Part shown: piece by piece, positions 1 to 27,688 of the stretch
Numbering within the stretch: position 1 is the stretch's first letter
Layout of the letters: each line of letters begins with the position of its first letter
Assembly (NCBI GenBank): GCA_945903705.1
Contig: CAMDOZ010000003.1
Location: forward strand, 642 to 64,641
Source: Fidelibacterota bacterium
GTDB lineage: Bacteria; Pseudomonadota; Alphaproteobacteria; Rhodospirillales; Rhodospirillaceae
DNA length: 64,000 bases
Direction: 5' to 3'
Made by a program: the position numbers and the translations under genes
Notes under the pieces: generated by a model
Seen by the model: only the letters and a program-made list of their open reading frames with translations
Database searches by the model: none
What the model was told of the DNA's origin: nothing

Positions 1-597
1 GACTTTCACTGCTCGGTGCTCGATCTCGGCCGCTGGCTCCGGCCGCGGCTGTCGGCCTTTCCAAACCACGGCGCGGTGCTTCAGGCCGATCCCGGGCACC
101 GCGATGAATGCCGGCGCAAATACCTTGCCGCGGCGCCAGGCCGGCGCCTTGTCGGCCTCTCCTGGCGAAGCGTGACACCGGAGATGTCCCACCAGAAAGG
201 CCGACCCCTTGCCGCTTTCCACCCGCTGTTAGCCGCCGAAAAATTAACCTTTATTAATTTACAGTATGGGGATGTGCGCGCTGAAGTAGAGGCGCTCCCA
301 GTCGCGTATAAATCGAATATTATCATTGATTCTGAAATAGATAGCCTCAAAGACCTGGATGGCTTCGCAGCCCAGGTGGCCGCTCTGGATGCCGTCGTGA
401 CCATCAGCAACACGACGGCCCACTTTGCGGGTGCGCTCGGCGTGCCGACCTGCCTGTGTCTCGCGCAGGCCCATAAGCAGCTCTGGTATTGGTTTGCCCG
501 GGGTCAATACAGCCCCTGGTATCGGTCGATTCGGATTCATCGGCGAATCCCCGGAGAGGGATTCGCCGAGATCAAGGAGATCCTTGAGAATTGCTGA
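1..597 (+). CDS. C-terminal part of a glycosyltransferase family 9-like (heptosyltransferase-fold) protein; 5' end lies outside the window
   Basis: Frame 1 is open from base 1 to TGA 595-597. Motif ISNTTAHFAGALGVPTCL resembles the GT9 sugar-nucleotide binding motif (DSGPMHLAAALGxP). No start codon can be assigned in the window. Confidence 0.6.
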   Translation, partial: DFHCSVLDLGRWLRPRLSAFPNHGAVLQADPGHRDECRRKYLAAAPGRRLVGLSWRSVTPEMSHQKGRPLAAFHPLLAAEKLTFINLQYGDVRAEVEALPVAYKSNIIIDSEIDSLKDLDGFAAQVAALDAVVTISNTTAHFAGALGVPTCLCLAQAHKQLWYWFARGQYSPWYRSIRIHRRIPGEGFAEIKEILENC

Positions 598-2447: not shown

Positions 2448-2484
2448 TCGCTACACTAAACCGGTTCGCCGGTTTGGAGATCGA

Positions 2485-2517
2485 GGGAGGGTGAGCAATC
2501 ACCCTCCCTTTTTCTTT
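2485..2517 (+). terminator. Rho-independent terminator after the S/T-rich protein gene
   Basis: Perfect 10-bp stem GGGAGGGTGA (2485-2494) / TCACCCTCCC (2499-2508), GCAA loop, followed by TTTTTCTTT. Confidence 0.85.
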
Positions 2518-2645: not shown

Positions 2646-3860
2646 ATGCTTCAATCTTTTCAATACGAGGCGGTGGACGGCGCCGGACGCGTTCTGACCG
2701 GACGCCTAGACGCAGCGGGTGAGCGCGACGCGCAACGCGCCCTGGAAGGCCAGGGGCTAACCGTCGTCAGCCTCGCCGGCGCAAAGGCACAAGCCGCAAA
2801 GAGCGGCGTTTTCGGCTTCCAACGCGGGGTGAGCGCGCAGGACCGCATCTTGGCCTTGAAGCAGCTTGCACTGCTGCTAAAGGCGGGCGTCCCGCTTGTG
2901 CAAGGGATCGGCACTCTCAAGAATCAGGCCACCCACCCGATCCTTGCGGAAGCCTTCACCAGCATGGAAAAGCGCCTGCGGACCGGCGACACCTTTTCGA
3001 ACGCCCTTGCCTTAGCGCTGCCCTCGCTCCCCGCTTACGTAAACCAACTGGCCGCTTCCGGCGAAGCCATTGGCCACCTGGGTCAGGCCCTGGACGACGC
3101 CGCGACGCAAATGGCCTACGACCGCCAGGTGCGCCAGGACATTCGCAATGCCTTGACCTATCCGTCGATTCTCATTGTTGCCGGCGTCACCGCCGTCCTC
3201 TTTATCTTCATTGTCGTCGTCCCGCGATTTTCCGCCATGGTCGCGAATGCCAAGGAACCACTCCCGTGGATCTCGGCCGTCGTGATCAAGACAGGCATGT
3301 TCCTCAGCGCCAACAAGCTGCTCCTGTTTGCCGCCGTCGCGGGCGCCGTCTGGTTCGCCTGGTCGGTCTTTAAGAGCCCCAAGCGCCGAAGCCAGATGCA
3401 TGAGGTCCTGGGCGGCCTCCCGCTCATTGGACTCTGGCTGAACGAAGCTGAAGTCGCCCGCTGGGCGTCGATGCTCGGCACGATGCTCGCCAACGGCGTC
3501 GACCTGATCAAAGGCCTGCAGCTTGCCAGGGACGGTGTGAATCTTTCTGGCCTTCGCGACCGCCTCGATCAGGCGACGAAACTGGTCAGATCGGGACAAT
3601 CGCTGTCGTCGGCCATCGCGAGCCAACAGGCCTTCTCCGATACGGCCCTCAGCCTTATCCAGGTCGGAGAGGAATCGGGCGAATTGCCGACGATGCTAAA
3701 GTCGCTCGCCGCTCTCTACGAGGATACGGCGCGCCAGAGAATGAAGCAGTTCCTGCTGTTCCTCGAGCCATGCGCCATTCTGTTCATCGGAATCGTGGTC
3801 GGTGGTATCGTTGCAGCCATTATGTTAGCAATCACATCCGTCAATCAGGTGGCTCTCTAA
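2646..3860 (+). CDS. gspF: Type II secretion system inner-membrane platform protein GspF
   Basis: 404 aa with GspF/PilC-type duplicated domain architecture, three hydrophobic segments and the motif GEESGELPTML. First gene of the gsp operon. Confidence 0.9.
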   Translation: MLQSFQYEAVDGAGRVLTGRLDAAGERDAQRALEGQGLTVVSLAGAKAQAAKSGVFGFQRGVSAQDRILALKQLALLLKAGVPLVQGIGTLKNQATHPILAEAFTSMEKRLRTGDTFSNALALALPSLPAYVNQLAASGEAIGHLGQALDDAATQMAYDRQVRQDIRNALTYPSILIVAGVTAVLFIFIVVVPRFSAMVANAKEPLPWISAVVIKTGMFLSANKLLLFAAVAGAVWFAWSVFKSPKRRSQMHEVLGGLPLIGLWLNEAEVARWASMLGTMLANGVDLIKGLQLARDGVNLSGLRDRLDQATKLVRSGQSLSSAIASQQAFSDTALSLIQVGEESGELPTMLKSLAALYEDTARQRMKQFLLFLEPCAILFIGIVVGGIVAAIMLAITSVNQVAL

Positions 3861-4345
3861 TGCCGAACGCCGTTGAAATCCGCCGCGCCCCTGCGGTGGC
3901 GGCCGCCCTTCAGAAGGGCTTCACCCTCCTCGAAATGCTGGTGGTGCTTGTCATCATCGGCCTTCTGGCCGGCCTTGTCGGTCCTCAGCTGATGGGCCGG
4001 GTCGATACATCCCGCCAGACCGCCGCGGACACCCAGAGTCGAATGTTGAAGAGCGCCCTCGATACGATGCGGCTCGACATCGCCCGCTATCCCACCAAGG
4101 AAGAAGGCCTCGTCATGTTGGTGAACGCGCCCGCGGACGAGCGCGTGGCGCGGAAATGGCGCGGGCCCTATCTCTCCGAATCGTTGCCCGCGGACCCTTG
4201 GGGGAATCCGTACCAATACGAGCCGATTTCATCGACCGTGGTCGCCCTTTACAGCCTCGGCGCCGACGGAGAACCGGGCGGCGAGGACATCAACTCCGAT
4301 GTCGGCCTCCTGCCGAAGTCGGCAGCCGCCAATGCAGCGCCCTAA
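3860..4345 (+). CDS. gspG: Type II secretion major pseudopilin GspG
   Basis: ATG overlaps the gspF stop (TAATG). Prepilin motif KG/FTLLEMLVVLVIIGLLAGLV. GspG-like core: WRGPYL, DPWGNPYQY, LYSLGADGEPGGE. Confidence 0.9.
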   Translation: MPNAVEIRRAPAVAAALQKGFTLLEMLVVLVIIGLLAGLVGPQLMGRVDTSRQTAADTQSRMLKSALDTMRLDIARYPTKEEGLVMLVNAPADERVARKWRGPYLSESLPADPWGNPYQYEPISSTVVALYSLGADGEPGGEDINSDVGLLPKSAAANAAP

Positions 4346-4868
4346 GAAAGCGAGAAACCGGGCGACGGGAGAGCGTGGCTTCACGTTGCTTGAGATTGTC
4401 GTTGTCCTCGTCATCGTTGCGATGACCGGAGCGATCGTCTTTCCGCGACTGACGACGATGGCGGCCAGTTTTGAATTCGCCTCGCAGCGCGATAGTTTTG
4501 AACAGGCTCTGAACGGCTTGACGTATCGGGCCTACCGGGACAATGACGACAAGACCCTGCAAGGGTCTTACAGCGCCGCCGGCCGCGACATCGAGGCAAA
4601 GCAACCGCGTCGTGAGCCCGGCACGACGCTACCGCCGGAAATGCGTGTACGGTCGCTGGCCGCCAATTCGCGCGAGCATCTCCCCCCTGTCACGACAAGC
4701 TATGCGGTGCTTCCCCTGCCTCAAGGATGGGAAATGGTGATCCAAGACCCCATTTACTTCCGCGGATCGGGATATTGCAGCGGCGGTACCGTCGAACTTT
4801 TTGTCGGACGCCTTCAATATACCTACAGGCTGCAGCCACCGCTGTGCCGCGCCGAATTGGTGGAATGA
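4332..4868 (+). CDS. gspH: Minor pseudopilin, GspH-like by position and size
   Basis: Prepilin N-terminal cleavage/methylation motif RG/FTLLEIVVVLVIV. 178 aa. Overlaps the gspG 3' end. An alternative start at 4299 is possible. Confidence 0.7.
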   Translation: MQRPKKARNRATGERGFTLLEIVVVLVIVAMTGAIVFPRLTTMAASFEFASQRDSFEQALNGLTYRAYRDNDDKTLQGSYSAAGRDIEAKQPRREPGTTLPPEMRVRSLAANSREHLPPVTTSYAVLPLPQGWEMVIQDPIYFRGSGYCSGGTVELFVGRLQYTYRLQPPLCRAELVE

Positions 4869-4871
4869 GCG

Positions 4872-5369
4872 ATGGTCCGGAGGCCAACCGCTGGATTCAC
4901 TCTTCTCGAAGCGATCGTCGCACTGACGGTGATGGCGCTTGCTTTGATACCCTTGATCACATTCATCGCGCAGTCGGCCGACCAATTGACTCGCGCGGCG
5001 GAGGTCAACGAGCGCAGCCTGACCGCACAATCAGTGATTGCCCTGATGGAGCCGGTCAATCCCATGGCCGAGCCCGAAGGGAGCCTACCTCTCGACGATG
5101 AAGTCGAGGTGTCCTGGCGCGCCGAAGCGATTGCGCCGCCGTCCGAAGGGGCGATCCTTGGGACTCTGCTGAACGGCTACCGTATAGGATTCTACGGCGT
5201 AACAGTGGCGGTGAGCCGCAACCGAGAGCCGTGGTTCGACTTTACCATGCGTAAGGTAGGCTATCAGAATATGCGATCCGCTGGCGCGTTTTCAGGGGAC
5301 CCGTCAGGGGGCATGGGACCAGGAAGCATGGGACCAGGAGGCATGGGACCAGGAGGCATGGGACCATGA
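4872..5369 (+). CDS. gspI: Minor pseudopilin, GspI-like, with a C-terminal (G/S)MGPG repeat tail
   Basis: Motif AG/FTLLEAIVALTV. 165 aa. Starts 3 nt after the upstream stop. C-terminus is GGMGPGSMGPGGMGPGGMGP. Confidence 0.7.
   Translation: MVRRPTAGFTLLEAIVALTVMALALIPLITFIAQSADQLTRAAEVNERSLTAQSVIALMEPVNPMAEPEGSLPLDDEVEVSWRAEAIAPPSEGAILGTLLNGYRIGFYGVTVAVSRNREPWFDFTMRKVGYQNMRSAGAFSGDPSGGMGPGSMGPGGMGPGGMGP
5311..5366 (+). repeat. 15-bp in-frame tandem repeat (about 3.7 copies) at the 3' end of the GspI-like gene
   Basis: GCATGGGACCAGGA(A/G) repeated at 5311, 5326 and 5341, with a partial copy at 5356. The last copy carries the ATGA stop/start overlap with the next gene. Confidence 0.9.
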
Positions 5370-5977
5370 GCCGCGGCTTTACGCTCCTCGAAGCCCTAGT
5401 GGTGCTCGTCATCACTGCCCTCATCTCCGTCGTGCTCGTCCAGGGGCTGGGTCTTCTTCTGGGGGCGCGCACCAGCGTGCAGAACAGACTCGTCGAGGTC
5501 GACGAAGCCGTTATCGAGCAAAGTCTTTTTTTGGAGCCTTTGCGGGGCGTCGTTCCCGACTATAACGAGCGGCCGCATACTTTCGTAGGCGAAGTCAAAC
5601 GCCTGCATGGGATGACGACGCGCCCCCTGCAAGGGCGCTCGGGAACACCGGTGCCATTTACCCTGACGATCAGCTTCGATCCTTCGCGCGACCAGAGCAC
5701 TCTCATGTATCAGGAAGACAACGCCCCGCCTCTTCCGCTCGGATCTTGGCAAGGCGAGACGGGGACCTTCGCCTACCGCAACATGACGGGCGCGTGGCGG
5801 GAAGCCTGGCCGCCCGAAGACGATCCGCAGGCGCCGCAGACGCCATGGCTGATCCGGTTCGAGCGAGGAACAGGGTTTCCCAAAAACCTGGTCGCGAGCG
5901 TCAACGGCACCCATCAACGTCCCTTGCGCTTTCGCGATACGCCTTTTGGCGTCGACTCCTTTACGGCCCCCCGCTAG
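5366..5977 (+). CDS. gspJ: Minor pseudopilin, GspJ-like
   Basis: Motif MSRG/FTLLEALVVLVITAL. 203 aa. ATGA overlap with the upstream gene. Confidence 0.7.
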   Translation: MSRGFTLLEALVVLVITALISVVLVQGLGLLLGARTSVQNRLVEVDEAVIEQSLFLEPLRGVVPDYNERPHTFVGEVKRLHGMTTRPLQGRSGTPVPFTLTISFDPSRDQSTLMYQEDNAPPLPLGSWQGETGTFAYRNMTGAWREAWPPEDDPQAPQTPWLIRFERGTGFPKNLVASVNGTHQRPLRFRDTPFGVDSFTAPR

Positions 5978-6123
5978 CACGGCGCAAAAACGTCAGCTTA
6001 TTAAGCAATTACAAATGTTTGGCGCCTGGGTCTGACAATGATTTAACGCCCACTTCAATCCTGCGCCGATAGTATCTGCGGCGCTGCCACACAATTCTCT
6101 CGCTTTGGGCCTGCCGACATTCT

Positions 6124-7299
6124 TTGCCTGTCGGCGTGCCTTCGGGTTGGGATGAGGTTTCAGGCGTGTCTATTGAGTCCACACAGTCGAGCGGCTCGCC
6201 GCACGCGCAAGCACGAGGGTTCATCCTCGCGCTGACGCTGTGGGTGATTGCGCTGTTTGGAGTCGGTGTCGCTGCCATTAATAGCTGGGTCTCGATGGCA
6301 ACGGAGAACGCCCGCACCTTGCGCTCGCGCGTGGACGATGAAATCGCGCTTTCGAATGCCAAGAGTGAGATCATCTATGCGCTCGCCACGCGCCCCATGA
6401 CTCATCGCGGGCTGGAGGTCGGGTCGGACCTCAAGCGGCCGACCACCGACGACATGTTCATAAGTATGGCGCAGGCAGCCCAGGAAACGTCCGGCTTCAT
6501 TGCATTCGATCGCCGTCCTTATGTGATGGAAAGCAATCCCGACTATGCGATTCAAATTCAGGACGGCCGGGGCCTGGTCAACTTGAATCGGATCCAGCCG
6601 CCGCTCTTGCGCCGCCTATTTGCGTTTTACGATGCGCCGGAAGTCCTCCGGAACCAGCTGCCGGACACGCTACAGGATTGGATCGACGAAGATGACTTGA
6701 CGCGCATTGCCGGCGCGGAACGGTCCGACTATGAACGCCTTCGGCGGGTGCCCCCTAGCGACGCCCGGCTCGTGACGCCCATGGAGGCGCAGAACATCCT
6801 CGGATGGGACGAAATCCCGCAGATGTGGGAGGACGACTTTCGCGCGCCCATCTTCTCGACGTGCGCTGCAGCCGGATTCAATCCGAACACCGCGCCGGAA
6901 GCCTCGCTTCTCGCGCACATGCCGGGCCTTACAGAAGACGGCGCCAAGTTCGTCGTCGATCAGCGCCGGGTGAGTACCTTTCGCCACGCCCGCGAATTCA
7001 TGGACGCGGCGAACGTCACGGTCCCCAACGAAGCCTTCTTCTTCGGCACGTCGCCCGGCAGTTGCATGGTGATCGATTTCGTCAATCGCAATACCGCGGA
7101 ACGTACCCGCGTTTCTCTTACTCTTGTAGATCGCAGTGAAAATCAGCCCTGGCAGGTGGACTATGCTTTCCGAATCCCTTCGCAGTACAGCGGGGCGCTT
7201 GACGGGCTCGATCCGCAGCTCACTTTCCCAGCCCCCGAAACGCTTTATTCAGTCGACGACTCAGCTCTTGCACCTTCCGGGCTCCGACAGGCGCCCTAA
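6124..7299 (+). CDS. gspK: Type II secretion minor pseudopilin GspK
   Basis: N-terminal ARGFILALTLWVIALF (pseudopilin-like, lacking Glu5, as in GspK). GspK-type segments: ERSDYERL, LVTPMEAQNILGW, FNPNTAPEASLLAHMPGL (helix-hairpin-helix-like). The start (TTG 6124 or GTG near 6166) is uncertain. Confidence 0.8.
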   Translation: MPVGVPSGWDEVSGVSIESTQSSGSPHAQARGFILALTLWVIALFGVGVAAINSWVSMATENARTLRSRVDDEIALSNAKSEIIYALATRPMTHRGLEVGSDLKRPTTDDMFISMAQAAQETSGFIAFDRRPYVMESNPDYAIQIQDGRGLVNLNRIQPPLLRRLFAFYDAPEVLRNQLPDTLQDWIDEDDLTRIAGAERSDYERLRRVPPSDARLVTPMEAQNILGWDEIPQMWEDDFRAPIFSTCAAAGFNPNTAPEASLLAHMPGLTEDGAKFVVDQRRVSTFRHAREFMDAANVTVPNEAFFFGTSPGSCMVIDFVNRNTAERTRVSLTLVDRSENQPWQVDYAFRIPSQYSGALDGLDPQLTFPAPETLYSVDDSALAPSGLRQAP

Positions 7300-8281
7300 C
7301 TGGATCCTCAGCCGCCGCTTCGTGCGGCAGAACGTCTTTGAAGTTTCCGAGAGCCTGCCCGAATCGAAACGCAAGCTGGCGCTCTCCCTCTTGGTGCGCA
7401 AGTGGTCGCCGTTTGTGTCGAGCCAATTTGCCGCGCAATGGGTCGGACACCGTGCCTGCGTATATGCCTGGGACGGTGACGCGGTTGCCACAGCCATTAC
7501 AGCGGCCGGCGAAAGCCCCCAACGATGCACCATTTGGCCCGAAACATTTTTCCGCGCACCCCTGCAGGACGGCATCCGTCTTGCACAGATGTGCGATGGC
7601 GTCGAAGGGCAGGTCTGGAGAAGCGGCTTGCTGGTCGCCACGCGTTGGTGGCCGGCCTCTCCAGCACCGCGCGACTGGGCAGGGTTCTTGCGCGCGGCCG
7701 GGATTGACCTCAGCCAAGCTTCGTTCGACGTGCCCGCGGCCGTGGAAAGCGAAATCCTCGCGCTTCCTTGGACGGTCGTCAGCGCTCCCGTTACCGATTT
7801 ATGGAGCCTGCTTCAGAACGAACGCGCCGCCGCAATTGCCGCAACGGTGGTTGCCGTACCATTTCTCTATTACCTGACGCAGTCGGCCGTGCTCCTGGCG
7901 GGAACGATGCGCGTCGAGGCAGCTATTGCCGATCTAACCGCGGCGAACCAGACCATTCGTACCGACCGGACGGCCGCCTTTACCAATCTCGAAAATGTCG
8001 AAACCTACCTTGGCCTTGAAAACTTTCCGTCGCAGTTCGAGACCATGAACGTGATCACCGGCTTGCTTCGCGAAAGCAAAGTCTCGCTGGCGGAATGGAA
8101 CTTCGACACCGGAAATCTGCAACTTGTCATACAAGCCGACCGCCCGCTCGAAGCGCCCTTCTTCATCGAAATGTTCGAAAAGAGCGACCATTTCTCGAAT
8201 GTGAGCGCCACCGTTGGAAATCAACAGCGAGAACTTCGCTTGACCATGTCGGTCGAACCGCGGCAATGGCCGACGTCATGA
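7163..8281 (+). CDS. GspL-like T2SS assembly protein (bitopic: cytoplasmic domain, one TM segment, periplasmic domain)
   Basis: Position after gspK. About 230-aa N-terminal domain, TM segment AAAIAATVVAVPFLYYLTQSAVLLAG, about 120-aa C-terminal domain. AGGTGGA lies before ATG 7163. GTG 7136 and GTG 7322 are alternative starts. Confidence 0.55.
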   Translation: MLSESLRSTAGRLTGSIRSSLSQPPKRFIQSTTQLLHLPGSDRRPNWILSRRFVRQNVFEVSESLPESKRKLALSLLVRKWSPFVSSQFAAQWVGHRACVYAWDGDAVATAITAAGESPQRCTIWPETFFRAPLQDGIRLAQMCDGVEGQVWRSGLLVATRWWPASPAPRDWAGFLRAAGIDLSQASFDVPAAVESEILALPWTVVSAPVTDLWSLLQNERAAAIAATVVAVPFLYYLTQSAVLLAGTMRVEAAIADLTAANQTIRTDRTAAFTNLENVETYLGLENFPSQFETMNVITGLLRESKVSLAEWNFDTGNLQLVIQADRPLEAPFFIEMFEKSDHFSNVSATVGNQQRELRLTMSVEPRQWPTS

Positions 8282-8922
8282 TGAAATCTTTCCCGACGCT
8301 TCAGAAGTTGCTGGACCGCCTGCGCGCCGAGTCGCGCAGTAGGATCGGCCATGACATTGTGCTGACCGATCGCCTCAAGGCCATGCTGTCCGTTGCCGTC
8401 GCGCTCGTCGTGCTTGCGGCTCTGATCGGAATGCACCAGACGGTCTCGTCGTTCGAACGCGATTACGAACGCGTACAGATCGACAAGGCGCGTTTGGAGG
8501 CCCAGATCAAAGCTGGCGGCTGGCAAGAGCGAAAGCAGCAGAGCCAAGTCCTAAAATCTCTCTTGGAGGAACGGCTCTGGGCCGCGCAGACCCCGGGGCT
8601 TGCCGACGCAGGCTTCGAAAGGTGGCTGCGTGACCGCATGTCTCCGCATAAGCTGGAGCCGATCGCGCAGATTCAAGTTCGGCGCGTTCCGCTCGTGCGG
8701 CAGGTGCAACCGGGCGAACAGCCAACCCCGCTCTCAACCGTTCAGCGCATGACGGCGAAGCTGATCCTTCCGTTCGAGAGTGCGGGACTATCGCACTTCT
8801 TGGCAGACATCGCCGAGGCGGATAAGGCCGTGGTTGTCGATCGTTTGATCGTGCGCGCGGGACGAAATGCACGTATCGAGATGGACGTGTCCGCGTTCTA
8901 CCGTTCTTCCGAACGGAATTGA
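8278..8922 (+). CDS. GspM-like T2SS protein (N-terminal TM anchor, periplasmic domain)
   Basis: ATG overlaps the upstream stop (ATGATGA). TM segment LKAMLSVAVALVVLAALIG near the N-terminus. Size and position fit GspM. No strong sequence motif. Confidence 0.55.
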   Translation: MMKSFPTLQKLLDRLRAESRSRIGHDIVLTDRLKAMLSVAVALVVLAALIGMHQTVSSFERDYERVQIDKARLEAQIKAGGWQERKQQSQVLKSLLEERLWAAQTPGLADAGFERWLRDRMSPHKLEPIAQIQVRRVPLVRQVQPGEQPTPLSTVQRMTAKLILPFESAGLSHFLADIAEADKAVVVDRLIVRAGRNARIEMDVSAFYRSSERN

Positions 8923-8934
8923 GGAGCCTCGCGG

Positions 8935-9453
8935 GTGGATCGTATTCTGACGCAGATCTTGGAGAGGCTTGGCGCTCTTCGGCCCTACGCGACCCATCTC
9001 GGCGCGTTGGGAATCGCCATTCTTTTCGGTTTGATCGTCGCGGTATTTAAGGTTTCGGGCAGCCCTCCTGCCGTGGACACGGCTGACCGCTGGCCGTTTC
9101 CGCAATGGGCGCCATTCCGCGCGGGCCCGCAGCGGGAAGTGCTCGCGCGGAGCACCCTATGGGCAGAAGATCCGACAAAAGCAAAAGTGGTCGTCGAAAA
9201 GAAAGTGGAAGGGCCGCCTTGGCGCTTCATCGGTACTTTTCAGGAAGGCGATACACGCATGGCAGTCATCGAACTTGATCAGGGAAAGCGCATTCAGCGC
9301 GTTGGCCCCGGTCAACCGCTGCCGAACGGCGCGTTGATCAAGACGATCGACACGAGTGTCCTCACCTATGACGAGAATGGCATCGAAAAGGCCCTGAAGC
9401 TCTTCGGCCTGACAAAAACTGACAACCTAGCGGCTGGAACTGGAAAGAACTGA
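8935..9453 (+). CDS. GspC/PilP-like secretin-interacting protein (TM anchor plus HR-type beta domain)
   Basis: GTG start. TM segment LGALGIAILFGLIVAVF. C-terminal WRFIGTFQEGDTRMAVIELDQGKRIQRVGPGQPLPNGALIKTIDTSVLTY resembles the GspC HR / PilP fold pattern. Lies immediately upstream of the secretin. Confidence 0.55.
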   Translation: MDRILTQILERLGALRPYATHLGALGIAILFGLIVAVFKVSGSPPAVDTADRWPFPQWAPFRAGPQREVLARSTLWAEDPTKAKVVVEKKVEGPPWRFIGTFQEGDTRMAVIELDQGKRIQRVGPGQPLPNGALIKTIDTSVLTYDENGIEKALKLFGLTKTDNLAAGTGKN

Positions 9454-9457
9454 GCGT

Positions 9458-11593
9458 ATGAAAAAATCATCGCAGAAGCGTCAACTGCTTACCGCTTGCC
9501 TCGCGATCGGAGGAGCCATGGTAATTCTGGCGAGCTGCTCGTCCCGGGTACCTTCGAGAATACCGCCTCCGTTGCCCGTGCCAAAGGCCGCCGATAGGGC
9601 CGGATTTACTGTTGCTGAAGGATCGGGGGAAACCGCGGGCCCCACGGAGATGAAAGTGACGGCTGGGCCTACGGTTCCACTCGGCAAGGGGACGACCGAG
9701 CCACTACTTTCCTCGGCCCTCCCTCACCTCACGGGTGAACCGATCAGTGTCAACTTCGACGGCATTCGCCTGCCCGCCTTCATCAATACTGTATTCGGCG
9801 AACTCTTAAAGCTTACCTTCGAAATCGACAGCACCGTGGCGGCGCGCGATCAAATGGTGACTCTGCGTACGGCCGGACCGCCCCTGTCACGCGACGAATT
9901 CTTTGGTCTCGTAGCCGAAGTTCTCAAGAACTACGGCATCAGCATCGTTTATTCGAACAACGTGTATCGGATCGTGGAGTCCGCAACCGTCAAGAAACCA
10001 ATTCCGCGTATCGTACGCACGCGCACGGCGTCGAATGTGCCGGCTGACTTGCGCCCGATATTCTATTTCCAGACCGTGCGAGCCATTTCAACCCAAACGA
10101 TGATGAGCTGGCTAAACCTGATCATGGGCGATCGGGTTACGCCGATGCCCTTGCTGGGCGCCAGCGGAATTGTACTGCTGGGGAGCCCGTCGGACGTGGA
10201 GGCGGCGATAGAAGTCATGGAAACGCTCGATCAGCCGTTTCTGGCCGGCAGCCAAAGTCTCAAAATTTCGCCGGCGTTCTGGAGCGCGCAGAAACTTGCA
10301 GAGCAACTCGCGAGTATTTTGACGGCGGAGGGTTATAGCATCGCGTTGGGTGGGCAGGCGGCGAGCTCGATCAAGATGCTCCCCGTCGAGGCCTTGAACG
10401 TCATCATCGTCTTCGGAACGTCCTCTGAAAGCCTGCAACATCTCTTGCAGTGGGCCACCGAACTCGATCAGCCAAGTCAAAAAATCGGGACCCAAGGCGT
10501 CTACTATCACCAAGTCCTCAACACGAAGGCGTCGGAAATCGCGACCACGGTCGGCTCAGTCCTGGGCGTGGGCGGCATAGGCGGCGCCCAGCAGCCGGCC
10601 AGCGGCGGAGTGACCTTGGCGACTGACTTACCTGCGACCGCACAACCAACGACGGCCACAGGAGGCGCGCGGGGCTCGCAGCGCCTTATCGTCGATGAGC
10701 CTCGCAACGGGATCCTCTTCGTCGGTACCGCCGAAGAGTTCGCGCAGTTCAAGGCACTTGCCGTCCAAATGGATCGAGCGCCCTTGGAAGTCCTGATCGA
10801 AGCGACGATAGCCGAAGTGACGCTGAGAGACAGTGAAGATCTTGGCATCGTACTGGACTATGACGACGGAAGAGCCACAGCGCCGAATCGAACCGTCGTT
10901 CAAGCCGACGAAGGCGGCATATTCTTCAGCCTCATCCGCGACCGCGCGTCCATCCTGGCCCGCGTCAACGCCCTCGCCGACTTCAATCGCCTCCAGGTCC
11001 TGTCGAGCCCGCGCATCGTCACGAGTAGCGGCAAGCAAGCCGCCATCAACGTGGGAACGCAGGTCCCCATTATCACGGCCCAGGAATCCTCGAGTGGTAC
11101 GGTTGGCGGCAATACGTCGATTCTGCAGTCGATTCAGTACCGGACAACCGGCGTGTCCCTCAGTATCGAGCCCACCATCAATTCGAACCGGCGGGTCGAG
11201 CTGACGGTGCAGCAGGAGGTGAGCGCCGCGCAGGAAAACAACCTGTCGTCCGTCCAGAGTCCGGTGATCATCAACCGTTCGATCAGCACATCGTTATCGC
11301 TGAACGACGGTGAAACCGTCCTGCTGGGCGGCATGATTTCAGAGAACTTCAGCGCAGGCCATACAGGAGTTCCATATTTGAAGGACATCCCACTGCTCGG
11401 CAATCTGTTCAAGTCGGGTTCGGAATCTGTCAATCGAACGGAATTGATCGTTCTGATTACGCCTTATATTATCGACGGACCCGAAGGAGCGCGGCAAGTA
11501 CGCGACGCCTTCCGCGGCAAACTTGGTGAATGGGCGCAACCGCTGGCCGAACCGGCGCCGGCCGCGGTCCCCGTCGCTTCACCTCAACAATAG
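9458..11593 (+). CDS. gspD: Type II secretion secretin GspD with a lipoprotein signal peptide (liposecretin-like)
   Basis: 711 aa with N0/N1-type domains. Secretin signature: VPYLKDIPLLGNLFK, RTELIVLITPYII. N-terminal lipobox ILAS-C at about residues 23-27. Confidence 0.92.
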   Translation: MKKSSQKRQLLTACLAIGGAMVILASCSSRVPSRIPPPLPVPKAADRAGFTVAEGSGETAGPTEMKVTAGPTVPLGKGTTEPLLSSALPHLTGEPISVNFDGIRLPAFINTVFGELLKLTFEIDSTVAARDQMVTLRTAGPPLSRDEFFGLVAEVLKNYGISIVYSNNVYRIVESATVKKPIPRIVRTRTASNVPADLRPIFYFQTVRAISTQTMMSWLNLIMGDRVTPMPLLGASGIVLLGSPSDVEAAIEVMETLDQPFLAGSQSLKISPAFWSAQKLAEQLASILTAEGYSIALGGQAASSIKMLPVEALNVIIVFGTSSESLQHLLQWATELDQPSQKIGTQGVYYHQVLNTKASEIATTVGSVLGVGGIGGAQQPASGGVTLATDLPATAQPTTATGGARGSQRLIVDEPRNGILFVGTAEEFAQFKALAVQMDRAPLEVLIEATIAEVTLRDSEDLGIVLDYDDGRATAPNRTVVQADEGGIFFSLIRDRASILARVNALADFNRLQVLSSPRIVTSSGKQAAINVGTQVPIITAQESSSGTVGGNTSILQSIQYRTTGVSLSIEPTINSNRRVELTVQQEVSAAQENNLSSVQSPVIINRSISTSLSLNDGETVLLGGMISENFSAGHTGVPYLKDIPLLGNLFKSGSESVNRTELIVLITPYIIDGPEGARQVRDAFRGKLGEWAQPLAEPAPAAVPVASPQQ

Positions 11594-11600
11594 GTTACAG

Positions 11601-12686
11601 ATGTTGAATTTACTTTCTCGCACGCTTCTTGCATTCGCCTTGCTTGTCGTATCCGCGGCTCATGGAGCGGAAGTCGCCCCGTTGCCGCGATTTACGCCAG
11701 ACGATGTGGAACAACTCACCATCGCCCAGCTGGACACGCGCACCGCAACGGGAGATTTGAAGGCCCAAGCCGAGCTTGGAGCGCGCTACGCGCGCGGCGC
11801 CGGGGTCACGGTCGACCTAAAGAAGGCGGTGTCGCTGTTCGAAGCTGGCGCAAAGAGAAACGGAGCGAACGCGCAATACTATCTTGGCACGGCCTACTCT
11901 ATGGGCGTCGGCGTGAAGCAGGATCCGAAGCAAGCGGCACGGTGGTTTGGGAAAGCCGCCGCGCAAGGGCATGCCGGCGCGCAATACTCGCTCGGCGTCA
12001 TGATGGCTACGGGAGAAGGCGGCCTTAAGGCCGACCCCAAGAAAGCGGCTGATCACGTCCTGAAGTCCGCCGAACAGGGTTTCGTCCTGGCCGCCTTCAG
12101 GATGGCTCAGCTTCATATAGCGGGCTTGGGAGTCGCACGAGACACTGAACGAGCGGCCGATTGGTATCGGCGCATCCTCAAGACCCAAGACCACCCTCCC
12201 TCGACCGCCGGCCTCGTCGTCCTCATCGAAACGAGAGAGGCGACATGGCAGCCTGGGGATCCCATTAACCAGCCCCCACCCTTGGCTAAGGAGGAGGCTC
12301 CCGCACAGGTCGCCGAAATCGCGCCCCCCGTTATGACGGGGCCCATCACGGCGGCTGCCCCCGACACGACCTTAAGTCTCTTGCCCGACGAGCAGGAGAC
12401 CATGACGTCATTCAAGACAGAACAAGGGCCGACGATCGAGGCGAGGACGAGAGCGGGCGCCCTTACGCTTTTCAGCACCTCGGACAAACCGCTTTCTTGC
12501 CAGATCGGCGTCACGTTCAGTTACCTTGAGAAGGACGGCGTGAGAACGCCGGGCACTTTCCTCTGCTTTCAGGCGGCCATGCGGGTCGGCCAGAAGGTGC
12601 AGGTTTGCGACGTCGTGAATCGCAACTTCGTGCAAACAAAAGTCGAAAAGATTGAGCTCACGAAATGCAGCACGCTCACGCCGTAA
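11601..12686 (+). CDS. Secreted Sel1-repeat (TPR-like) protein with a C-terminal domain of unknown family
   Basis: Signal peptide MLNLLSRTLLAFALLVVSAAHGA. At least four Sel1-type repeats (AQAELGARYARGAGV, AQYYLGTAYSMGVGV, AQYSLGVMMATGEGG, AAFRMAQLHIAGLGV). Starts 8 nt after the gspD stop. Confidence 0.85.
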   Translation: MLNLLSRTLLAFALLVVSAAHGAEVAPLPRFTPDDVEQLTIAQLDTRTATGDLKAQAELGARYARGAGVTVDLKKAVSLFEAGAKRNGANAQYYLGTAYSMGVGVKQDPKQAARWFGKAAAQGHAGAQYSLGVMMATGEGGLKADPKKAADHVLKSAEQGFVLAAFRMAQLHIAGLGVARDTERAADWYRRILKTQDHPPSTAGLVVLIETREATWQPGDPINQPPPLAKEEAPAQVAEIAPPVMTGPITAAAPDTTLSLLPDEQETMTSFKTEQGPTIEARTRAGALTLFSTSDKPLSCQIGVTFSYLEKDGVRTPGTFLCFQAAMRVGQKVQVCDVVNRNFVQTKVEKIELTKCSTLTP

Positions 12687-12706
12687 CGACTTCTGCGATT
12701 TGACCG

Positions 12707-12937
12707 ATGTCCAACCAATTGATCATCACACTGCTGGTGCTCGCGGCCGAAGTCGGATTGTTCGTACTTTGCGTCATTGTTTCACGCAGGCCGATTGATC
12801 CGCTGAAACCGCGATTGATCCCCTACAACATCATCATGATCTTTCTCGCAGTCGCGATCTTCGCGACTGCGGCCCACGTCATCAGCCTCTTGACCGGTCA
12901 GCAGTTGATGCCGCGTCAGCGCAAAGGGATGCGTTAG
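12707..12937 (+). CDS. Small two-TM membrane protein, unknown function
   Basis: 76 aa with two hydrophobic helices and a basic C-terminus. Followed by a long hairpin. Confidence 0.55.
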   Translation: MSNQLIITLLVLAAEVGLFVLCVIVSRRPIDPLKPRLIPYNIIMIFLAVAIFATAAHVISLLTGQQLMPRQRKGMR

Positions 12938-12950
12938 CCGAGCGATTCCC

Positions 12951-12997
12951 GGCACACGATCGGATCGGATTGAATCAATCCGATCCGACCGTGTGCC
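12951..12997. terminator. Long near-perfect palindrome (22-nt arms, 1 mismatch); probable terminator of the gsp-side transcription unit
   Basis: GGCACACGATCGGATCGGATTG / AAT loop / CAATCCGATCCGACCGTGTGCC, followed by GTTTTAG. Confidence 0.55.
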
Positions 12998-13126
12998 GTT
13001 TTAGATAATTAGGGCGCGATTTAACGAAAAACCGCTGCACACTTCCCGCCTTCGCTAAAGCTTCGGCGGGCCTTGAGTACATAGGTCCTCCGAAGCCGCA
13101 AGGCGAAGGAGGATTGCTATCGCGCC

Positions 13127-13738
13127 CTATCGTACTGGGACATTGGGTTGGACGGATTTCGTAGCTGTGGTCCACCCCATGGCCGTATCGAGAATGGCGT
13201 GCAAGACGGCCTGGTGCCCGGTTTCGACAAAGCCGTAAACCGCCGAATTGACGAAGAAGTTCACATCACCCAGCCGGCGAAGATCATTGTCCGGAGAAAA
13301 GCCGCTGAGCGTGATCACTTCGCACTTGAGGTTCGCCGCGGCGCGAGCGGCGTTCAGGATGTTCTTCGATCCGCCGGAGCTCGAGATCGCGATGAGCACG
13401 TCGCCGGCGAAAGCCTGCATCTCAACCTGCTTGGCAAAGACCTGATCGTATCCCAGATCGTTGCCAAGGCACGTCAACGACGAGGCGTCGTTGAATGTCA
13501 CGGCGCGGACGCCGCCGTTCTTCGCAAAATCGATCGCAAGGTGTCCTGCTATCCCGGCCGAGCCGCCATTGCCCACGAACATCACCTTGCCCGTGCCCCT
13601 CGCGACACGTCGCATGGAGTCGTGCACGCGCACGATACCGGCGTCCACGGCAAGTGCCGCGCCCTGCCGATCGGTCACAGTGACGGACTTCAGCGTGTCG
13701 AAGAAAGTTTGTACGTAATCGGCATAAGAATTTGACAT
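13127..13738 (-). CDS. gmhA: SIS-domain sugar-phosphate isomerase, GmhA (sedoheptulose-7-phosphate isomerase) family
   Basis: Motifs KVMFVGNGGSAGIAGHLAIDF and DVLIAISSSGGSKNIL are typical of the GmhA/DiaA SIS family. About 203 aa. Confidence 0.8.
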   Translation of the reverse strand: MSNSYADYVQTFFDTLKSVTVTDRQGAALAVDAGIVRVHDSMRRVARGTGKVMFVGNGGSAGIAGHLAIDFAKNGGVRAVTFNDASSLTCLGNDLGYDQVFAKQVEMQAFAGDVLIAISSSGGSKNILNAARAAANLKCEVITLSGFSPDNDLRRLGDVNFFVNSAVYGFVETGHQAVLHAILDTAMGWTTATKSVQPNVPVR

Positions 13739-13953
13739 GTGATCATCGAGCCTTTGCAACCCAATATATAATCTTCACGTAGGCCGTTTAACAAGTTATG
13801 AGCGCGCCGATGCCCGGCCGACCACCGCAATATCGTGTGGGGCACGGGCTTGTGATAGGCACACCCTGCGCTCCCAGCGCCATCCATGGCCATTTGGCAA
13901 GGCTGGTTTTGGCGCGGTATAGTCCATTGGTAATAACGTAACTTCGATTGGCC

Positions 13954-14346
13954 ATGTACGAAAAAGTAACGCGCGACATTTCGGTATCGGTGAGGTCCTT
14001 CTACCTTGAGGAACAGTCCTCGCCTGACGAGGATCACTTTGTATGGGCCTACAAGGTCAATATCCAGAACCGCGGCAACGATACGGTCCAGCTACTGAAT
14101 CGTCACTGGCGGATTACCGATAAGCTCGGGCGCCTTCAGGAGGTGCGCGGCGCCGGTGTCGTAGGAGAACAGCCCGTTCTGAAACCAGGTGAATCCTTCG
14201 AATATACCAGTGGCTGCCCGCTCGAGACTCCCTCCGGCATCATGGCGGGCTCGTATCAAATGTCGACGGCCAGCGGCGAGCGTTTTGAGATTGAAATTCC
14301 TGCTTTTTCCCTCGACAGCCCCTATGATAACGCCGCGATAAATTAG
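13954..14346 (+). CDS. apaG: ApaG (DUF525) protein
   Basis: FVWAYKVNIQNRGNDTVQLLNRHWRITD...GEQPVLKPGESFEYTSGCPLETPSGIMAGSYQM matches the ApaG family pattern. Confidence 0.9.
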   Translation: MYEKVTRDISVSVRSFYLEEQSSPDEDHFVWAYKVNIQNRGNDTVQLLNRHWRITDKLGRLQEVRGAGVVGEQPVLKPGESFEYTSGCPLETPSGIMAGSYQMSTASGERFEIEIPAFSLDSPYDNAAIN

Positions 14347-14382
14347 AGCACTTGCTATCGTCGGCGGTGTAAGGATGCGGAA

Positions 14383-15009
14383 ATGACAAACCTACGTAAA
14401 TCGAGTGCCGGCGACGCCACCACCGTAAGCGGCAAGCAGGACCAACCCTCCCGCGCCGAAGCGGAAGCTGCCGTGCGCACGCTCATCCGCTGGGCCGGCG
14501 ATGACCCCACCCGCGAGGGTCTCCAAAAGACGCCGGAGCGAGTCGTGAAATCCTACGAGGAGTTTTTCGAAGGTTACCGGCAAGACCCCGAAGAAATCCT
14601 ACGCACGACATTCGAGGAAACCGAGGGCTACGACGAGATGGTCGTCCTCAAGGACATCGACTTCCACAGCCACTGCGAGCACCACATGGTGCCGATCGTC
14701 GGGAAGGCTTACGTCGCTTATCTACCGGACAAGCGCGTCATCGGCATTTCGAAGCTGGCACGCGTGGTGGAAGCTTACGCAAGGCGCCTGCAAATTCAGG
14801 AAAAGATGACGGCGCAGATCGCGAACGCGATCAATGACGTCTTGAAGCCGCGGGGCGTCGCCGTCATCGTCGAAGCGGAGCACCAGTGCATGACAACGCG
14901 GGGTGTACACAAGCCCGGCGTCTCGATGGTGACCTCGACGATGCTCGGCGCCTTCCGCGACGACGCGCTGACCCGGCGCGAGTTCCTGGCGATCGTGGGC
15001 CGGACCTAA
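14383..15009 (+). CDS. folE: GTP cyclohydrolase I
   Basis: Signature [44 protein letters not shown]. Confidence 0.95.
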
Positions 15010-15027
15010 CCCCTTCGGACCTGAGGC

Positions 15028-15612
15028 TCAGCCCCGGCCACGGACGATCGTCTGCTGAATCCGCGGTTGAAGCTCGCGGTCAAGATTGGCGAATGCCTTC
15101 TTGATCATTTCCAGAAACAGCGCCTGCTTCTCGGTATCGGTCGTACCTTCAGGCATGGTCGTCGAATGCATGGTCTTTGCTTCCGCGCTGCCCTGCTGCT
15201 GCCCATTCGCGTCGATGAGAGCAACCGAGATTTCGAGATTCGCCGTATATTCGGCCGACTGATCCTTGCGGAACCATCCGGCGATGCCCTTCTTCACGGG
15301 CAGAAGCATTTCGACGATGTCCGCTTCGCGGACAGTGACGCGGAGCGTGTTCTCGCCCGCGCCGGTCAGCACGAAGTGACTGCGCGCCCACATATTCACC
15401 GCTTGCTCGAAAGAAACCGGCGAGCGATGCGCCATGTGCGGGTATTCGCTCGGCGGCTGCCTTTGCATTTCGACCACCAATTTGTTGGCGTCGATCGTGG
15501 TCGGCGCGACATCTTGAAACAACGCCGGGCTTTCGGCCTGCGCAACTGCTGTCAGCGGTGCCACTGTCAGAAGGGCCGTGACGGCGATAGCGGACAAGAT
15601 CAACCGTTTCAT
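15028..15612 (-). CDS. Exported protein of unknown function
   Basis: Signal peptide [30 protein letters not shown] start/stop coupling to hslO upstream. Confidence 0.7.
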   Translation of the reverse strand: MKRLILSAIAVTALLTVAPLTAVAQAESPALFQDVAPTTIDANKLVVEMQRQPPSEYPHMAHRSPVSFEQAVNMWARSHFVLTGAGENTLRVTVREADIVEMLLPVKKGIAGWFRKDQSAEYTANLEISVALIDANGQQQGSAEAKTMHSTTMPEGTTDTEKQALFLEMIKKAFANLDRELQPRIQQTIVRGRG

Positions 15613-16586
15613 TCATTCACCGCGGGGGCTTGAGAGCGGTGCTGCCGAGACAGCGCCAGGAGCTCGTTTTCGGAGAACGCATAGTCGGTGCGACAGAACT
15701 CACAGACCATATGGACGATACCGTCCTGCGCGTAGGACCTCACTTCTTCTACCGGAAATGAGGCAAGAATACGGGCGCTGCGCTCGCGCGAGCAACGGCA
15801 CTTCGCGACCACGGGGCGCCGGTCCAGGAGACGGAGGCCGACGGTGGTGTAGAGCCGCTTAACCAATTGAGCGGGGGTCAGCGACAGGTCGAGGAGCTCG
15901 GAATCCTTAAGGCTCCCAAGGAGGATAACGGCCGTACGCCAGGCGTCTTCCGCCTCCTCGCGGTCGATGATCCGGCCACCGTCCTCCGGCATACGCTGGA
16001 TCAGCACCGCGCCGGCGGTCCAAGGGCCCCCGTTCCGGGGCGCGCCGACGGCAATCTTCAGGGCCGATTCGATCTGCTCCGACTGCCTGAAGTAGTTATG
16101 AATAGAGTCCGCAAGAGTTTCCCCCGTCAGTTCCACGATCCCTTGATAGCGCTCCGTGTCGGAACCCTGGTCGACCGTAAAGCCGAGATGGCCCGACGAT
16201 CCCAGGTACTGGGGCGCCGATCCCGCGGGCCGCGGCTTGGCCGTTTCCGCCGCCAGCTTGTCGGGATCGAACTTGGCCCACGCGCGCAGCTCACCGGTGC
16301 TGGTTACATCGGTCACCAGAGTATGAACGGGCCCGGCGCTTTGGACCTGCAGAGTGAAGATGCCGTCGTACTTGAGCCCGTTCGCAAGCGCGACGGCCGC
16401 AACCATTGCTTCAGCCAACAGTGTAGAGACTTCGGGCGGATCGCCGTGCCGGGTCAGTATCTCGGAGACGGAACCGGTGAGACGTACGAGGCGTCCGCGA
16501 AAAGCGCCGTCGTTGATGATGAACGGCAGGCAAATGTCTTCGGCGTCGGGCGCGACCGCACCCGCGGCTGTCACGTGAGACACCAC
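15609..16586 (-). CDS. hslO: Hsp33 family redox-regulated chaperone
   Basis: C-terminal zinc/redox switch CRCSRE...CEFCRTDY and overall Hsp33 length. GTG start assumed. Confidence 0.9.
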
Positions 16587-17476
16587 AAGAGAACGCCCTT
16601 TTGCGCGTGAAGCCTATTTTCGGCTTCGTCCCAGACGGCCGATTGAGGGCTTTCGAGAACGCCTGCGGTCACCTCTTCGCCGCGATGAGCCGGGAGGCAG
16701 TGCATGAAGATGGCGTCGGGCTTTGCCGCTTTCATCAGACCTTCGTTCACCTGGAACGGTGCGAGCACGGCATGGCGGCCGCCCGCGGCATCGCCCATAG
16801 AGACCCATGTGTCGGTGACGATGCAGTCGGCACCTCGAACGGCGGCAATAGGATCCGTCCCCACGCTCACGCGCGCGCCCTTCCCTTTCGCCCATGCCAA
16901 TGCCTGAGGCGACGGGGCTAGGGAGGCTGGGCACGCGAGACGCAGTTCGAAGTCGAATAGGCAAGCAGCGTGAATCCAACTTGTTGCGACGTTGTTGCCG
17001 TCGCCCGACCACGCCACGACGGCGTTCTTGATCGGCCCCTTGCGTTCTTCATAAGTCATGACGTCGGCCATGATCTGGCAGGGGTGAGACTCGTCCGTCA
17101 GGCCATTGATAACGGGCACCGTGGAATAGCGCGCGAGCTCATGCAGTTTTTCCGGGCCCGACGTGCGAATCATGATTGCATCGACATAACGCGAGAGAAC
17201 CCGAGCCGTATCGGCGATAGTTTCGCCGCGGCCGAGTTGCATACTCTCTGGTGACAGCACCACGACTTGGCCGCCTAACTGTTGCATTCCAACCTGGAAT
17301 GAAACGCGCGTACGGGTGGAAGGTTTCTCGAACAACATGGCCAGCGTCTTGCCGACAAGGGGCTGGCCCGCAGCGCCCGACTTGCCTTGCGCCGACTTGA
17401 GCTTGGCCGCGCTTGCGAGGATCGCGCGGAGCGTTTCTGAATTGAGAAGGTGAAGGTCGAGGAAGTGTTTCAGCAT
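16571..17476 (-). CDS. argF: Ornithine carbamoyltransferase
   Basis: Motifs [29 protein letters not shown]. Confidence 0.95.
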
Positions 17477-17497
17477 GGAGCCCTCCGGGCCGACGAC

Positions 17498-18676: not shown

Positions 18677-18832
18677 ACGTCGCCCTTTCCCCGGCGATAT
18701 GCGGCCGAGAGAACCTTCCTCCGGCCTAAAAACAAAACGGAAAAAAATAGGGGCGGCCCGAAGACCGCCCGCGCCTTGATTCATACGCCAAACTTCCGGT
18801 TTGTCAACGACTGGACGCGCCCAGGAAAGCGC

Positions 18833-19657: not shown

Positions 19658-19695
19658 TGCCGTCCTCATTCGTTCAGCGCCATGATGCCTTGCCT

Positions 19696-20268: not shown

Positions 20269-20270
20269 AT

Positions 20271-20792: not shown

Positions 20793-20796
20793 GGAC

Positions 20797-21915: not shown

Positions 21916-21921
21916 AGGTGT

Positions 21922-23069: not shown

Positions 23070-23071
23070 CG

Positions 23072-24178: not shown

Positions 24179-24265
24179 GGCCTATGCCTATTTGGGTTGC
24201 GCGCCTTCGCGCGCTAGCTTTTTCCGAGGCGCGGAGCGTAACATCGGGCACTTCATGGGGGAACC

Positions 24266-24841: not shown

Positions 24842-25032
24842 GCGCGCGCACGGCGGCGCATTTGATGATGCTGCGGTGCAGCATAAATTCGTTTGACAGC
24901 TCGCAGGCCACGAACTAGTTGTGTTGCCCTTTCCAAACTGAAAAAACATGTAAGCCGGCCTAATAGAGCGCCCGCTGAACACCATTCGAACGCTTTCCGG
25001 GCCAGAGATTTTCGGGGGAATAGGTTCAAACC

Positions 25033-27675: not shown

Positions 27676-27688
27676 CCCCTCGTCCTAA

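Follow-up and report, generated by a model that had tools for sequence, protein, structure and literature searches.

A type II secretion gene cluster in an uncultured Rhodospirillaceae genus very probably has its own GspE-family motor, encoded in the same conserved locus

Main finding

The DNA analysed here is a stretch of 64,000 nucleotides (the window; positions 642 to 64,641 of contig CAMDOZ010000003.1, assembly GCA_945903705.1) from an uncultured member of the Rhodospirillaceae. Ten genes at 2646–11593 encode components of an Xps-type type II secretion system (T2SS), namely those of the membrane, the pseudopilus and the outer membrane. A first-pass annotation made from the letters of the window had remarked on the absence of the GspE ATPase and of the prepilin peptidase (GspO), and had supposed that the ATPase is supplied in trans, possibly by sharing with another system, or that the system works differently. 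Our analysis makes it very probable that the system has its own dedicated motor of the GspE family, encoded ∼20 kb upstream at the head of the same locus of ∼35 kb, and no new way of powering a T2SS needs to be invoked. The E-less and O-less appearance is an artefact of where the window begins and of the fragmentation of the assembly, combined with a normal Xps-type layout.

Location of the ATPase

The contig of the window (C3) belongs to a metagenome-assembled genome (MAG; G000) in 240 contigs, and only 641 contig bases precede base 1 of the window. Profile scans of the whole genome confirmed the earlier observation that neither operon nor window encodes the ATPase or the peptidase, as C3 gave no match to the GspE family (T2SSE, PF00437) or to Peptidase_A24 (PF01478). 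T2SSE matches were confined to contigs C18, C152 and C30, the last below threshold, so that the genome holds two full ATPases of this family. One of these, the GspE (657 bits) of a complete canonical T2SS, is encoded on C18 in a cluster of the order C-D-E-F-G-H-I-J-K-L-M-N that also has a GspL (TIGR01709, 224 bits).

The other ATPase (582 residues) is encoded on the minus strand of the 7 kb contig C152 at 3327–5075, and its neighbours are a methyltransferase gene and glycosyltransferase (GT)-like genes whose products carry tetratricopeptide repeats (TPR). Its best family is GspE (TIGR02533, 569 bits), aligned from residue 175 on; the cut-off of 630 is not reached because an MshEN domain takes the place of the N1E region, which is present in the canonical GspE of this genome. 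This N-terminal domain aligns with residues 1–145 of Vibrio cholerae MshE (PDB code 5htl, E = 1.7e-7), with the N-terminal domains of PilF and PilB and, weakly, with that of XpsE, and it scores 50 bits against NF053729, an MshE-related model of the cyclic di-GMP (c-di-GMP) motif with a cut-off of 38. Residues 21–73 have the tandem 24-5-24 motif layout, with Pro in place of Arg1 in both motifs and Ala at position 11; distant members of the genus keep the Arg in motif II. The Walker A (GPTGSGKS) and tetracysteine (CPHC…CTRC) motifs are intact.

Contig C143 is a tandem array of TPR-GT genes and shares 49 nt at its end with the start of C3. This overlap, and a TPR-GT reading frame that is open from the first base of C3, suggested that C152, C143 and C3 are one locus broken at paralogous repeats. 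In blastn comparisons the reverse complement of C152, C143 and C3 were colinear on single contigs of three members of the genus, G004 (9793–14937, 17674–24875 and 24730–37461, respectively), G001 and G006, and tiling on these relatives leaves ∼2.7 kb between C152 and C143. The probable order in the MAG is C152, a gap of ∼2.7 kb, C143 and C3, the array of paralogues having presumably fragmented the assembly.

Conservation of the locus

Comparisons covered 24 further genomes from this uncultured Rhodospirillaceae genus (here called congeners) and 16 other families of the same order. The gene for the divergent GspL-type (L-like) protein of the cluster was found in 22 of the 24 congeners, at 38–78% identity, and was not found in the 16 other families. 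In 12 congeners (G001, G003, G004, G005, G006, G009, G013, G015, G016, G017, G020 and G023) an orthologue of the C152 ATPase, 72–87% identical, shares a contig with the L-like gene, 21–27 kb from it, and in G021 and G024 both genes are absent. This co-localization of ATPase and cluster, together with their joint absence, speaks for a dedicated motor. G022, which has the cluster and gave no ATPase match, was set aside as a counter-example, as its contig ends inside the TPR-GT array. G016 has two ATPase copies of the locus type, at C4:5225–6943 and C9:1190–2881 of that genome, with 72% and 74% identity to the query.

According to tblastn maps of G001 (an assembly of ten contigs), G004 and G006, the locus is co-directional, with all genes on one strand in the order TPR-methyltransferase, ATPase, seven to eight TPR-GT genes, a gene for a 516-residue protein, F-G-H-I-J-K-L-M-C-D and a Sel1-repeat gene; the TPR-methyltransferase was not detected in the map of the G006 locus. 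The conserved locus measures ∼35 kb, and 8–11 TPR-GT9 paralogues lie between the ATPase gene and that of the 516-residue protein; in the present MAG about eight of them would separate the ATPase gene from gspF. Five more distant congeners (G013, G015, G016, G022 and G023) have the same gene set with the block that runs from the 516-residue protein through F-G-H-I-J inverted relative to K-L-M-C-D. TPR-GT genes then stand on both sides of the block, that is, also between it and K-L-M-C-D. The inversion implies that the gap of 146 nt between gspJ and gspK in the window marks an old rearrangement breakpoint. The annotation had named a gspE–gspO pair just upstream of base 1 as the finding that would overturn its view, and had suggested comparing the cluster in relatives. 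That comparison, which places the ATPase in the same conserved locus in 12 congeners, bears out the substance of this, as the ATPase does lie upstream; it is ∼13–15 kb away rather than adjacent, and no gspO accompanies it.

A cluster without its own motor, which borrows the GspE of C18 or the ATPase of some pilus, would account for the absence of an ATPase from operon and window, and C18 does indeed offer a second, complete T2SS that has a GspE. Against such borrowing stands the conserved dedicated ATPase, which lies with the cluster in 12 congeners and is missing from those that lack the cluster. Moreover, canonical GspE (matches at ∼50% identity) was found only in G000, G008, G014 and G021 and most congeners are without it: G006, G013, G015 and G023 have a single T2SSE-family match each, and G001 has only the locus ATPase and one of a pilus cluster resembling the mannose-sensitive haemagglutinin (MSHA) type. 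In the many congeners that lack canonical GspE, the locus ATPase is the sole GspE-type motor available. The GspE of C18 is, in addition, paired with a canonical GspL without any similarity, by profile, to the L-like protein. We regard borrowing as very improbable.

The 59 clusters of L-like homologues are all at least 47% identical except for the most distant (P0059), and those with a source name all come from MAGs of Rhodospirillaceae bacteria. A single distant homologue (26% identity) was found at 5036–18907 of a Logan contig from SRR6201700 (locus L047), in a T2SS-like cluster. It comprises G, H, K, L, M, C and D together with a divergent F and its own A24 peptidase; sulfotransferase, GT2, GT4 and methyltransferase genes are interspersed among them, and no gspE was found within 19 kb. 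This mixture of T2SS genes with glycosyltransferase and sulfotransferase genes may point to a broader group of T2SS variants connected with glycans.

Selection and integrity

The ratio of nonsynonymous to synonymous substitution rates (dN/dS), computed against G004 with synonymous sites saturated throughout, is 0.05–0.15 for those machine genes that allowed its computation (in gspI and the GspC-like gene the synonymous sites were saturated), with values of 0.05 for gspF and 0.054 for the C152 ATPase. The machine genes of the locus and the ATPase gene are under strong purifying selection. On the strength of its dN/dS, its intact Walker A and tetracysteine motifs and the MshEN fold of its N-terminal domain, we judge the ATPase to be functional-looking. 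The gene for the 516-residue protein is fast-evolving in comparison with the machine genes, with a dN/dS of ∼0.58.

The annotation had also considered that the cluster might be a decaying, non-functional remnant that has lost gspE, and the scores of its products offer some grounds for this, since only GspG passes its NCBIfam equivalog cut-off and L, M and C can hardly be recognized from their sequences. However, all ten open reading frames (ORFs) are intact in this genome and in at least seven congeners, the L-like gene persists in 22 of 24 congeners down to 38% identity, and dN/dS remains at 0.05–0.15. The lone stop codon encountered, in the alignment of the H gene of G004, sits 5′ of the true start. 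Presence across the genus and low dN/dS refute decay, to which we give almost no credence.

Gene content of the window

Gene identities were taken from the ORF list of the window together with Pfam and NCBIfam scans. The features of the cluster and its borders are as follows.

1–597, plus strand: 3′-terminal part of a TPR-GT9-like glycosyltransferase gene, the last one in the array upstream; frame open from the start of C3
897–2447, plus strand: secreted protein of 516 residues, rich in Thr, Ser, Ala and Gly, candidate cargo; directly 5′ of gspF in congeners
2483–2510, plus strand: hairpin resembling an intrinsic terminator (12 bp stem, then a T-run), between the candidate cargo gene and gspF
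2646–3860, plus strand: gspF, polytopic inner-membrane platform protein; Pfam T2SSF, E = 2.7e-51
3860–4345, plus strand: gspG, major pseudopilin; ORF open from 3770, the probable ATG at 3860 overlapping the gspF stop codon
4332–4868, plus strand: gspH-like minor pseudopilin; ORF open from 4299, N_methyl motif RGFTLLE, weak GspH match
4872–5369, plus strand: gspI-like minor pseudopilin; XpsI and GspI N-terminal matches, motif AGFTLLE
5366–5977, plus strand: gspJ-like minor pseudopilin; N_methyl motif RGFTLLE, position kept in congeners
5978–6123, no strand: J/K intergenic gap of 146 nt; coincides with the rearrangement breakpoint
6124–7299, plus strand: gspK-like minor pseudopilin; T2SSK_1st, T2SSK and NF037980 matches
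7268–8281, plus strand: divergent GspL-type protein; ORF open from 7136 (381 residues), assigned by fold comparison only
8263–8922, plus strand: gspM-like; ORF open from 8095, weak XpsM/GspM match (NF040576, E = 1.7e-4), position conserved
8935–9453, plus strand: bitopic GspC/XpsN-like protein of 172 residues (PilP/HR-type) without a PDZ domain; N-terminal transmembrane segment
9458–11593, plus strand: gspD secretin with a lipoprotein-type signal peptide (liposecretin); Secretin (PF00263, E = 2.1e-46), Secretin_N and N0
11601–12686, plus strand: secreted Sel1-repeat protein, conserved last gene of the locus; Sel1 repeats E = 7e-28, ORF open from 11523

The ten consecutive T2SS-type genes were described correctly by the first-pass annotation: all are intact, on the plus strand and tightly packed, with junctions that are overlaps or gaps of at most 12 nt and the J/K gap as the sole exception. 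Their order F-G-H-I-J-K-L-M-C-D had been called non-canonical; it is that of the Xps system of Xanthomonas (PMC11981180). It had further been argued from the terminator that gspE is not simply the preceding gene. The terminator is present and gspE is not immediately upstream, which bears this part out; that nothing relevant lies upstream could not be judged from a window preceded by 641 contig bases.

GspG is the only product to pass its equivalog threshold (TIGR01710, 165 bits; cut-off 88.85), and its prepilin motif KGFTLLE has Glu at position +5. The best NCBIfam match of GspF, TIGR02120, reaches 287 bits against a cut-off of 424, and that of GspD, TIGR02517, reaches 293 bits against 351. 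The start of the gspH-like gene was placed by comparison with G004. The N-terminus of the GspK-like protein, RGFILALT, is without Glu at +5, as in GspK. The 172-residue GspC-like protein gave a faint match below cut-off to HofP of the PilP family (E = 0.0066) and occupies the XpsC position. GspC proper is an inner-membrane protein that makes contact with the secretin through its HR domain. At the N-terminus of the secretin (window 9458–9545) a lipobox, …VILASC/SS, is followed by a Pro-rich segment, an architecture that resembles that of self-piloting secretins.

The TPR-GT gene that enters the window at 1–597 has its 5′ part on C143 and in the first 641 bases of C3, and has seven further TPR-GT paralogues, which lie on C152, C143 and C45. 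At the other border, the Sel1 gene follows gspD in every congener examined with the exception of G016, for which no match was reported. Beyond it lie housekeeping genes for a GmhA-like SIS protein, ApaG, FolE, Hsp33, ArgF and ArgD.

The L-like protein

No sequence-family match was obtained for the L-like protein in searches of Pfam and NCBIfam, in a PDB profile search or by hhalign against the canonical GspL of this genome. An AlphaFold2 model built on 26 homologues (mean predicted local distance difference test score, pLDDT, of 82.5) shows an α/β domain of ∼145 residues and a long transmembrane/coiled helix, and ends in a ferredoxin-like domain. The top folds retrieved from the PDB with Foldseek were PilM, cyto-EpsL, the GspL of the GspE–GspL complex (PDB code 4pht) and cyto-PulL; further matches were to the periplasmic domains of PulL, EpsM, XcpY and EpsL, the whole series having E-values of 1.9e-4 to 0.2. 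As judged from the model, the protein has the GspL/PilM fold and a GspL topology with a shortened cytoplasmic domain, an assignment made by fold only.

Prepilin peptidase and the MSHA-like pilus cluster

Peptidase_A24 matches were found only on C105, C45 and C220 in the genome-wide search. The only full-length PilD-type peptidase (249 residues, 52.8 bits) is encoded at C45:7400–8149 on the minus strand, and has a Cys-rich N-terminal region (CPAC…CRTC) and a GMGDAKL motif. A prepilin peptidase was sought in the 38 kb T2SS loci of six congeners and none was found. The peptidase for the system of the window is probably supplied by this unlinked gene, and in Xps systems an unlinked peptidase is usual (PMC11981180). 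The absence of a peptidase from operon and window is thus borne out, while the supposed shared or foreign ATPase, and a system that works differently, give way to a dedicated ATPase in the same locus.

A second observation on C105, at 4229–5992, is a short A24 peptidase (174 residues, CpaA/TadV-like in size) that adjoins a gene whose product, judged by eye, has an N-terminus looking like a sugar aminotransferase of the DegT/PseC type; no ATPase of the TadA/CpaF type was detected in the genome.

The C45 peptidase gene is part of an MSHA-like cluster (C45:2774–13079, locus L046) with an MshL-like secretin, an ExeA/MshM-like AAA ATPase, a TPR protein, a pilin and a TPR-GT9 paralogue. The corresponding cluster of G001 has its own MshE-like ATPase, 35% identical to the C152 ATPase, and a platform gene beside the pilin gene. 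Neither gene was found in the present assembly, where a PAS-domain gene lies 3′ of the pilin gene; in this MAG, it is the MSHA-like cluster, not the T2SS, that is without a detectable motor. The C152 ATPase was considered as the missing MSHA motor and rejected, both because the G001 cluster has the separate ATPase just described and because the orthologue of the C152 ATPase always accompanies the TPR-GT/T2SS locus.

The TPR-GT9 array and the candidate cargo

Modelled with AlphaFold2 (pLDDT 85; predicted TM-score, pTM, of 0.87), the TPR proteins have a GT-B fold in their C-terminal domain. The best Foldseek match was RfaF (PDB code 1psw, E = 2.4e-9, TM-score 0.61), followed by the GT9 structure 3tov, 2h1h and 4rap, with WaaC and TibC among the best. 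At the sequence level the resemblance to GT9 is marginal (RfaF, E = 2.4e-4; PDB code 1psw, E = 0.076 in the PDB profile search), and the domain gave no Pfam match. The N-termini show no visible signal peptide, which makes a cytoplasmic location probable. Within the array, a conserved gene for ∼225–370 residues (C143:431–1540; 16685–17820 of the G001 locus) has a DxD-like motif, CDSDML, and neither TPR repeats nor a Pfam match; its product may be a different type of glycosyltransferase.

The N-terminus of the 516-residue protein resembles a signal peptide, and 55% of all residues of the protein are Thr, Ser, Ala or Gly. The protein gave no Pfam match. The position of its gene before gspF is kept in both arrangements of the locus. 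A literature search on TPR, heptosyltransferase, T2SS and S-layer yielded no description of such a locus.

Proposed mechanism

The gene identities, the synteny across the genus, the contig tiling and the purifying selection are established here, as are the folds of the L-like protein and the GT domain; with them the following mechanism may be pictured. The MshEN-type N-terminal domain of the ATPase would dock on the L-like protein at its shortened cytoplasmic domain, and the ATPase would power assembly of a pseudopilus from G and H-I-J-K that pushes cargo through the liposecretin. The cargo would most likely be the adjacent Ser/Thr-rich 516-residue protein, which the TPR-GT9 enzymes may glycosylate in the cytoplasm before its export by Sec. 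The motor may in addition be modulated by c-di-GMP.

Several points weigh against this picture and against a dedicated motor. In this genome the link between C152 and C143 is drawn from synteny: a search for end overlaps of C152 with any other contig gave none, and only C143 and C3 overlap. The 49 nt of that overlap fall within sequence that is duplicated between paralogues, and could reflect a mis-join. The pairing of the ATPase with the L-like protein is one that we infer; the Foldseek E-values of the latter for its top folds are modest (1.9e-4 to 4e-3) and its cytoplasmic domain has only ∼145 residues. Binding of c-di-GMP is uncertain, given that Pro replaces the c-di-GMP-contacting Arg in both MshEN motifs. 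The cargo and glycosylation roles are suggested by gene neighbourhood only.

The same machine and ATPase might instead build a glycosylated surface fibre, a pilus-like use of the T2SS scaffold in which the TPR-GT9 enzymes modify the pseudopilins. The MshEN domain of the ATPase, typical of the pilus motors MshE, PilB and PilF, and the TPR-GT paralogue beside the MSHA-like cluster on C45 are consistent with this. The GspG score above the T2SS major-pseudopilin cut-off and the presence of a GspK-type cap protein argue against a fibre, as does the lack of a retraction ATPase in the locus; and the signal-peptide-bearing Ser/Thr-rich protein, invariably encoded 5′ of gspF, evolves like a surface antigen. 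A fibre is therefore unlikely in our estimation, although less so than borrowing of a motor.

Secretion powered by the motor of the locus remains our preferred reading, and in its widest form it would make the ∼35 kb locus a kind of secretion-coupled protein glycosylation system that has not been described before: an Xps-type T2SS with highly divergent GspL, M and C, whose motor carries an MshEN sensor, and 8–11 cytoplasmic TPR-GT9 enzymes decorating an exported, hypervariable Ser/Thr-rich surface protein, co-evolved across the genus. We put this forward tentatively, as a possibility that falls somewhat short of an even chance. If the coupling of glycosylation and secretion is true, it would add a Gram-negative route to heavily glycosylated surface proteins and would allow the docking of an MshEN-bearing GspE on a minimal GspL to be studied in a natural setting.

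Whatever its cargo, the locus is of interest as an Xps-type T2SS, present genus-wide, that is split by a TPR-GT9 family and a fast-evolving gene for a candidate surface protein. It also contains a GspL-type protein family for which there is no existing model and a motor with a variant c-di-GMP-sensor domain. A system that seemed motor-less at the boundary of a window, in a MAG broken at an array of paralogues, also calls for caution in reading other such absences.

Comparison with known systems

The closest parallel is the Xps system of Xanthomonas, in which xpsE forms its own operon ahead of xpsF, followed by xpsGHIJKLMCD, and GspO is encoded elsewhere (PMC11981180). The locus described here shares the order F-G-H-I-J-K-L-M-C-D, an E gene ahead of F in a separate transcription unit, a prepilin peptidase outside the cluster and, in the position of the GspC homologue (formerly XpsN, short and with an HR region), a likewise short candidate GspC, and the N-terminal domain of XpsE belongs to the same T2SSE_N/MshEN superfamily. 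It differs in the ∼15 kb of TPR-GT9 genes and the candidate cargo gene that separate E and F, in the inversion of cargo-F-G-H-I-J relative to K-L-M-C-D in part of the genus, in L, M and C proteins too divergent for family models, in a secretin that is a lipoprotein and in the variant MshEN motif.

Other T2SSs are linked to S-layers: npdA occurs with gsp1 in Paracidovorax and Delftia, and vapA of Aeromonas salmonicida and slr4 of Pseudoalteromonas tunicata are further cases (PMC10765051). In these, the S-layer genes adjoin second T2SS clusters, and some NpdA-linked clusters are without local gspE–I (PMC10765051). The present genome likewise has a second T2SS beside a candidate surface-protein gene, in addition to a general T2SS, whereas a TPR-GT9 array has not been described for the npdA, vapA or slr4 loci. 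The Lsp T2SS of Legionella pneumophila is spread over several dispersed loci, so that a functional T2SS need not have gspE and the peptidase in one operon; here, in contrast, all parts except the peptidase lie within one conserved locus.

MshEN ATPases include MshE of V. cholerae, PA14_29490 of Pseudomonas aeruginosa and PilF of Thermus thermophilus (PMC5013675), and ATPases of this type also occur in gsp operons (PMC5013675). Their motif is a tandem of 24 residues, RLGxx(L/V/I)(L/V/I)xxG(L/V/I)(L/V/I)xxxxLxxxLxxQ, with a five-residue spacer (Wang et al., PMC5013675). The C152 ATPase aligns with residues 1–145 of MshE in the same 24-5-24 architecture, and departs from it in having Pro, not the c-di-GMP-contacting Arg, as the first residue of its motifs.

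The TPR proteins of the locus carry N-terminal TPR arrays, unlike the protein heptosyltransferases TibC and Aah (BAHT family) and the LPS heptosyltransferases RfaF and WaaC (GT9), and their resemblance to GT9 in sequence is marginal. What they have in common with these enzymes is the GT-B fold, for which RfaF, 3tov, WaaC and TibC are the best matches; a gene for a GmhA-like SIS protein is found immediately beyond the locus.

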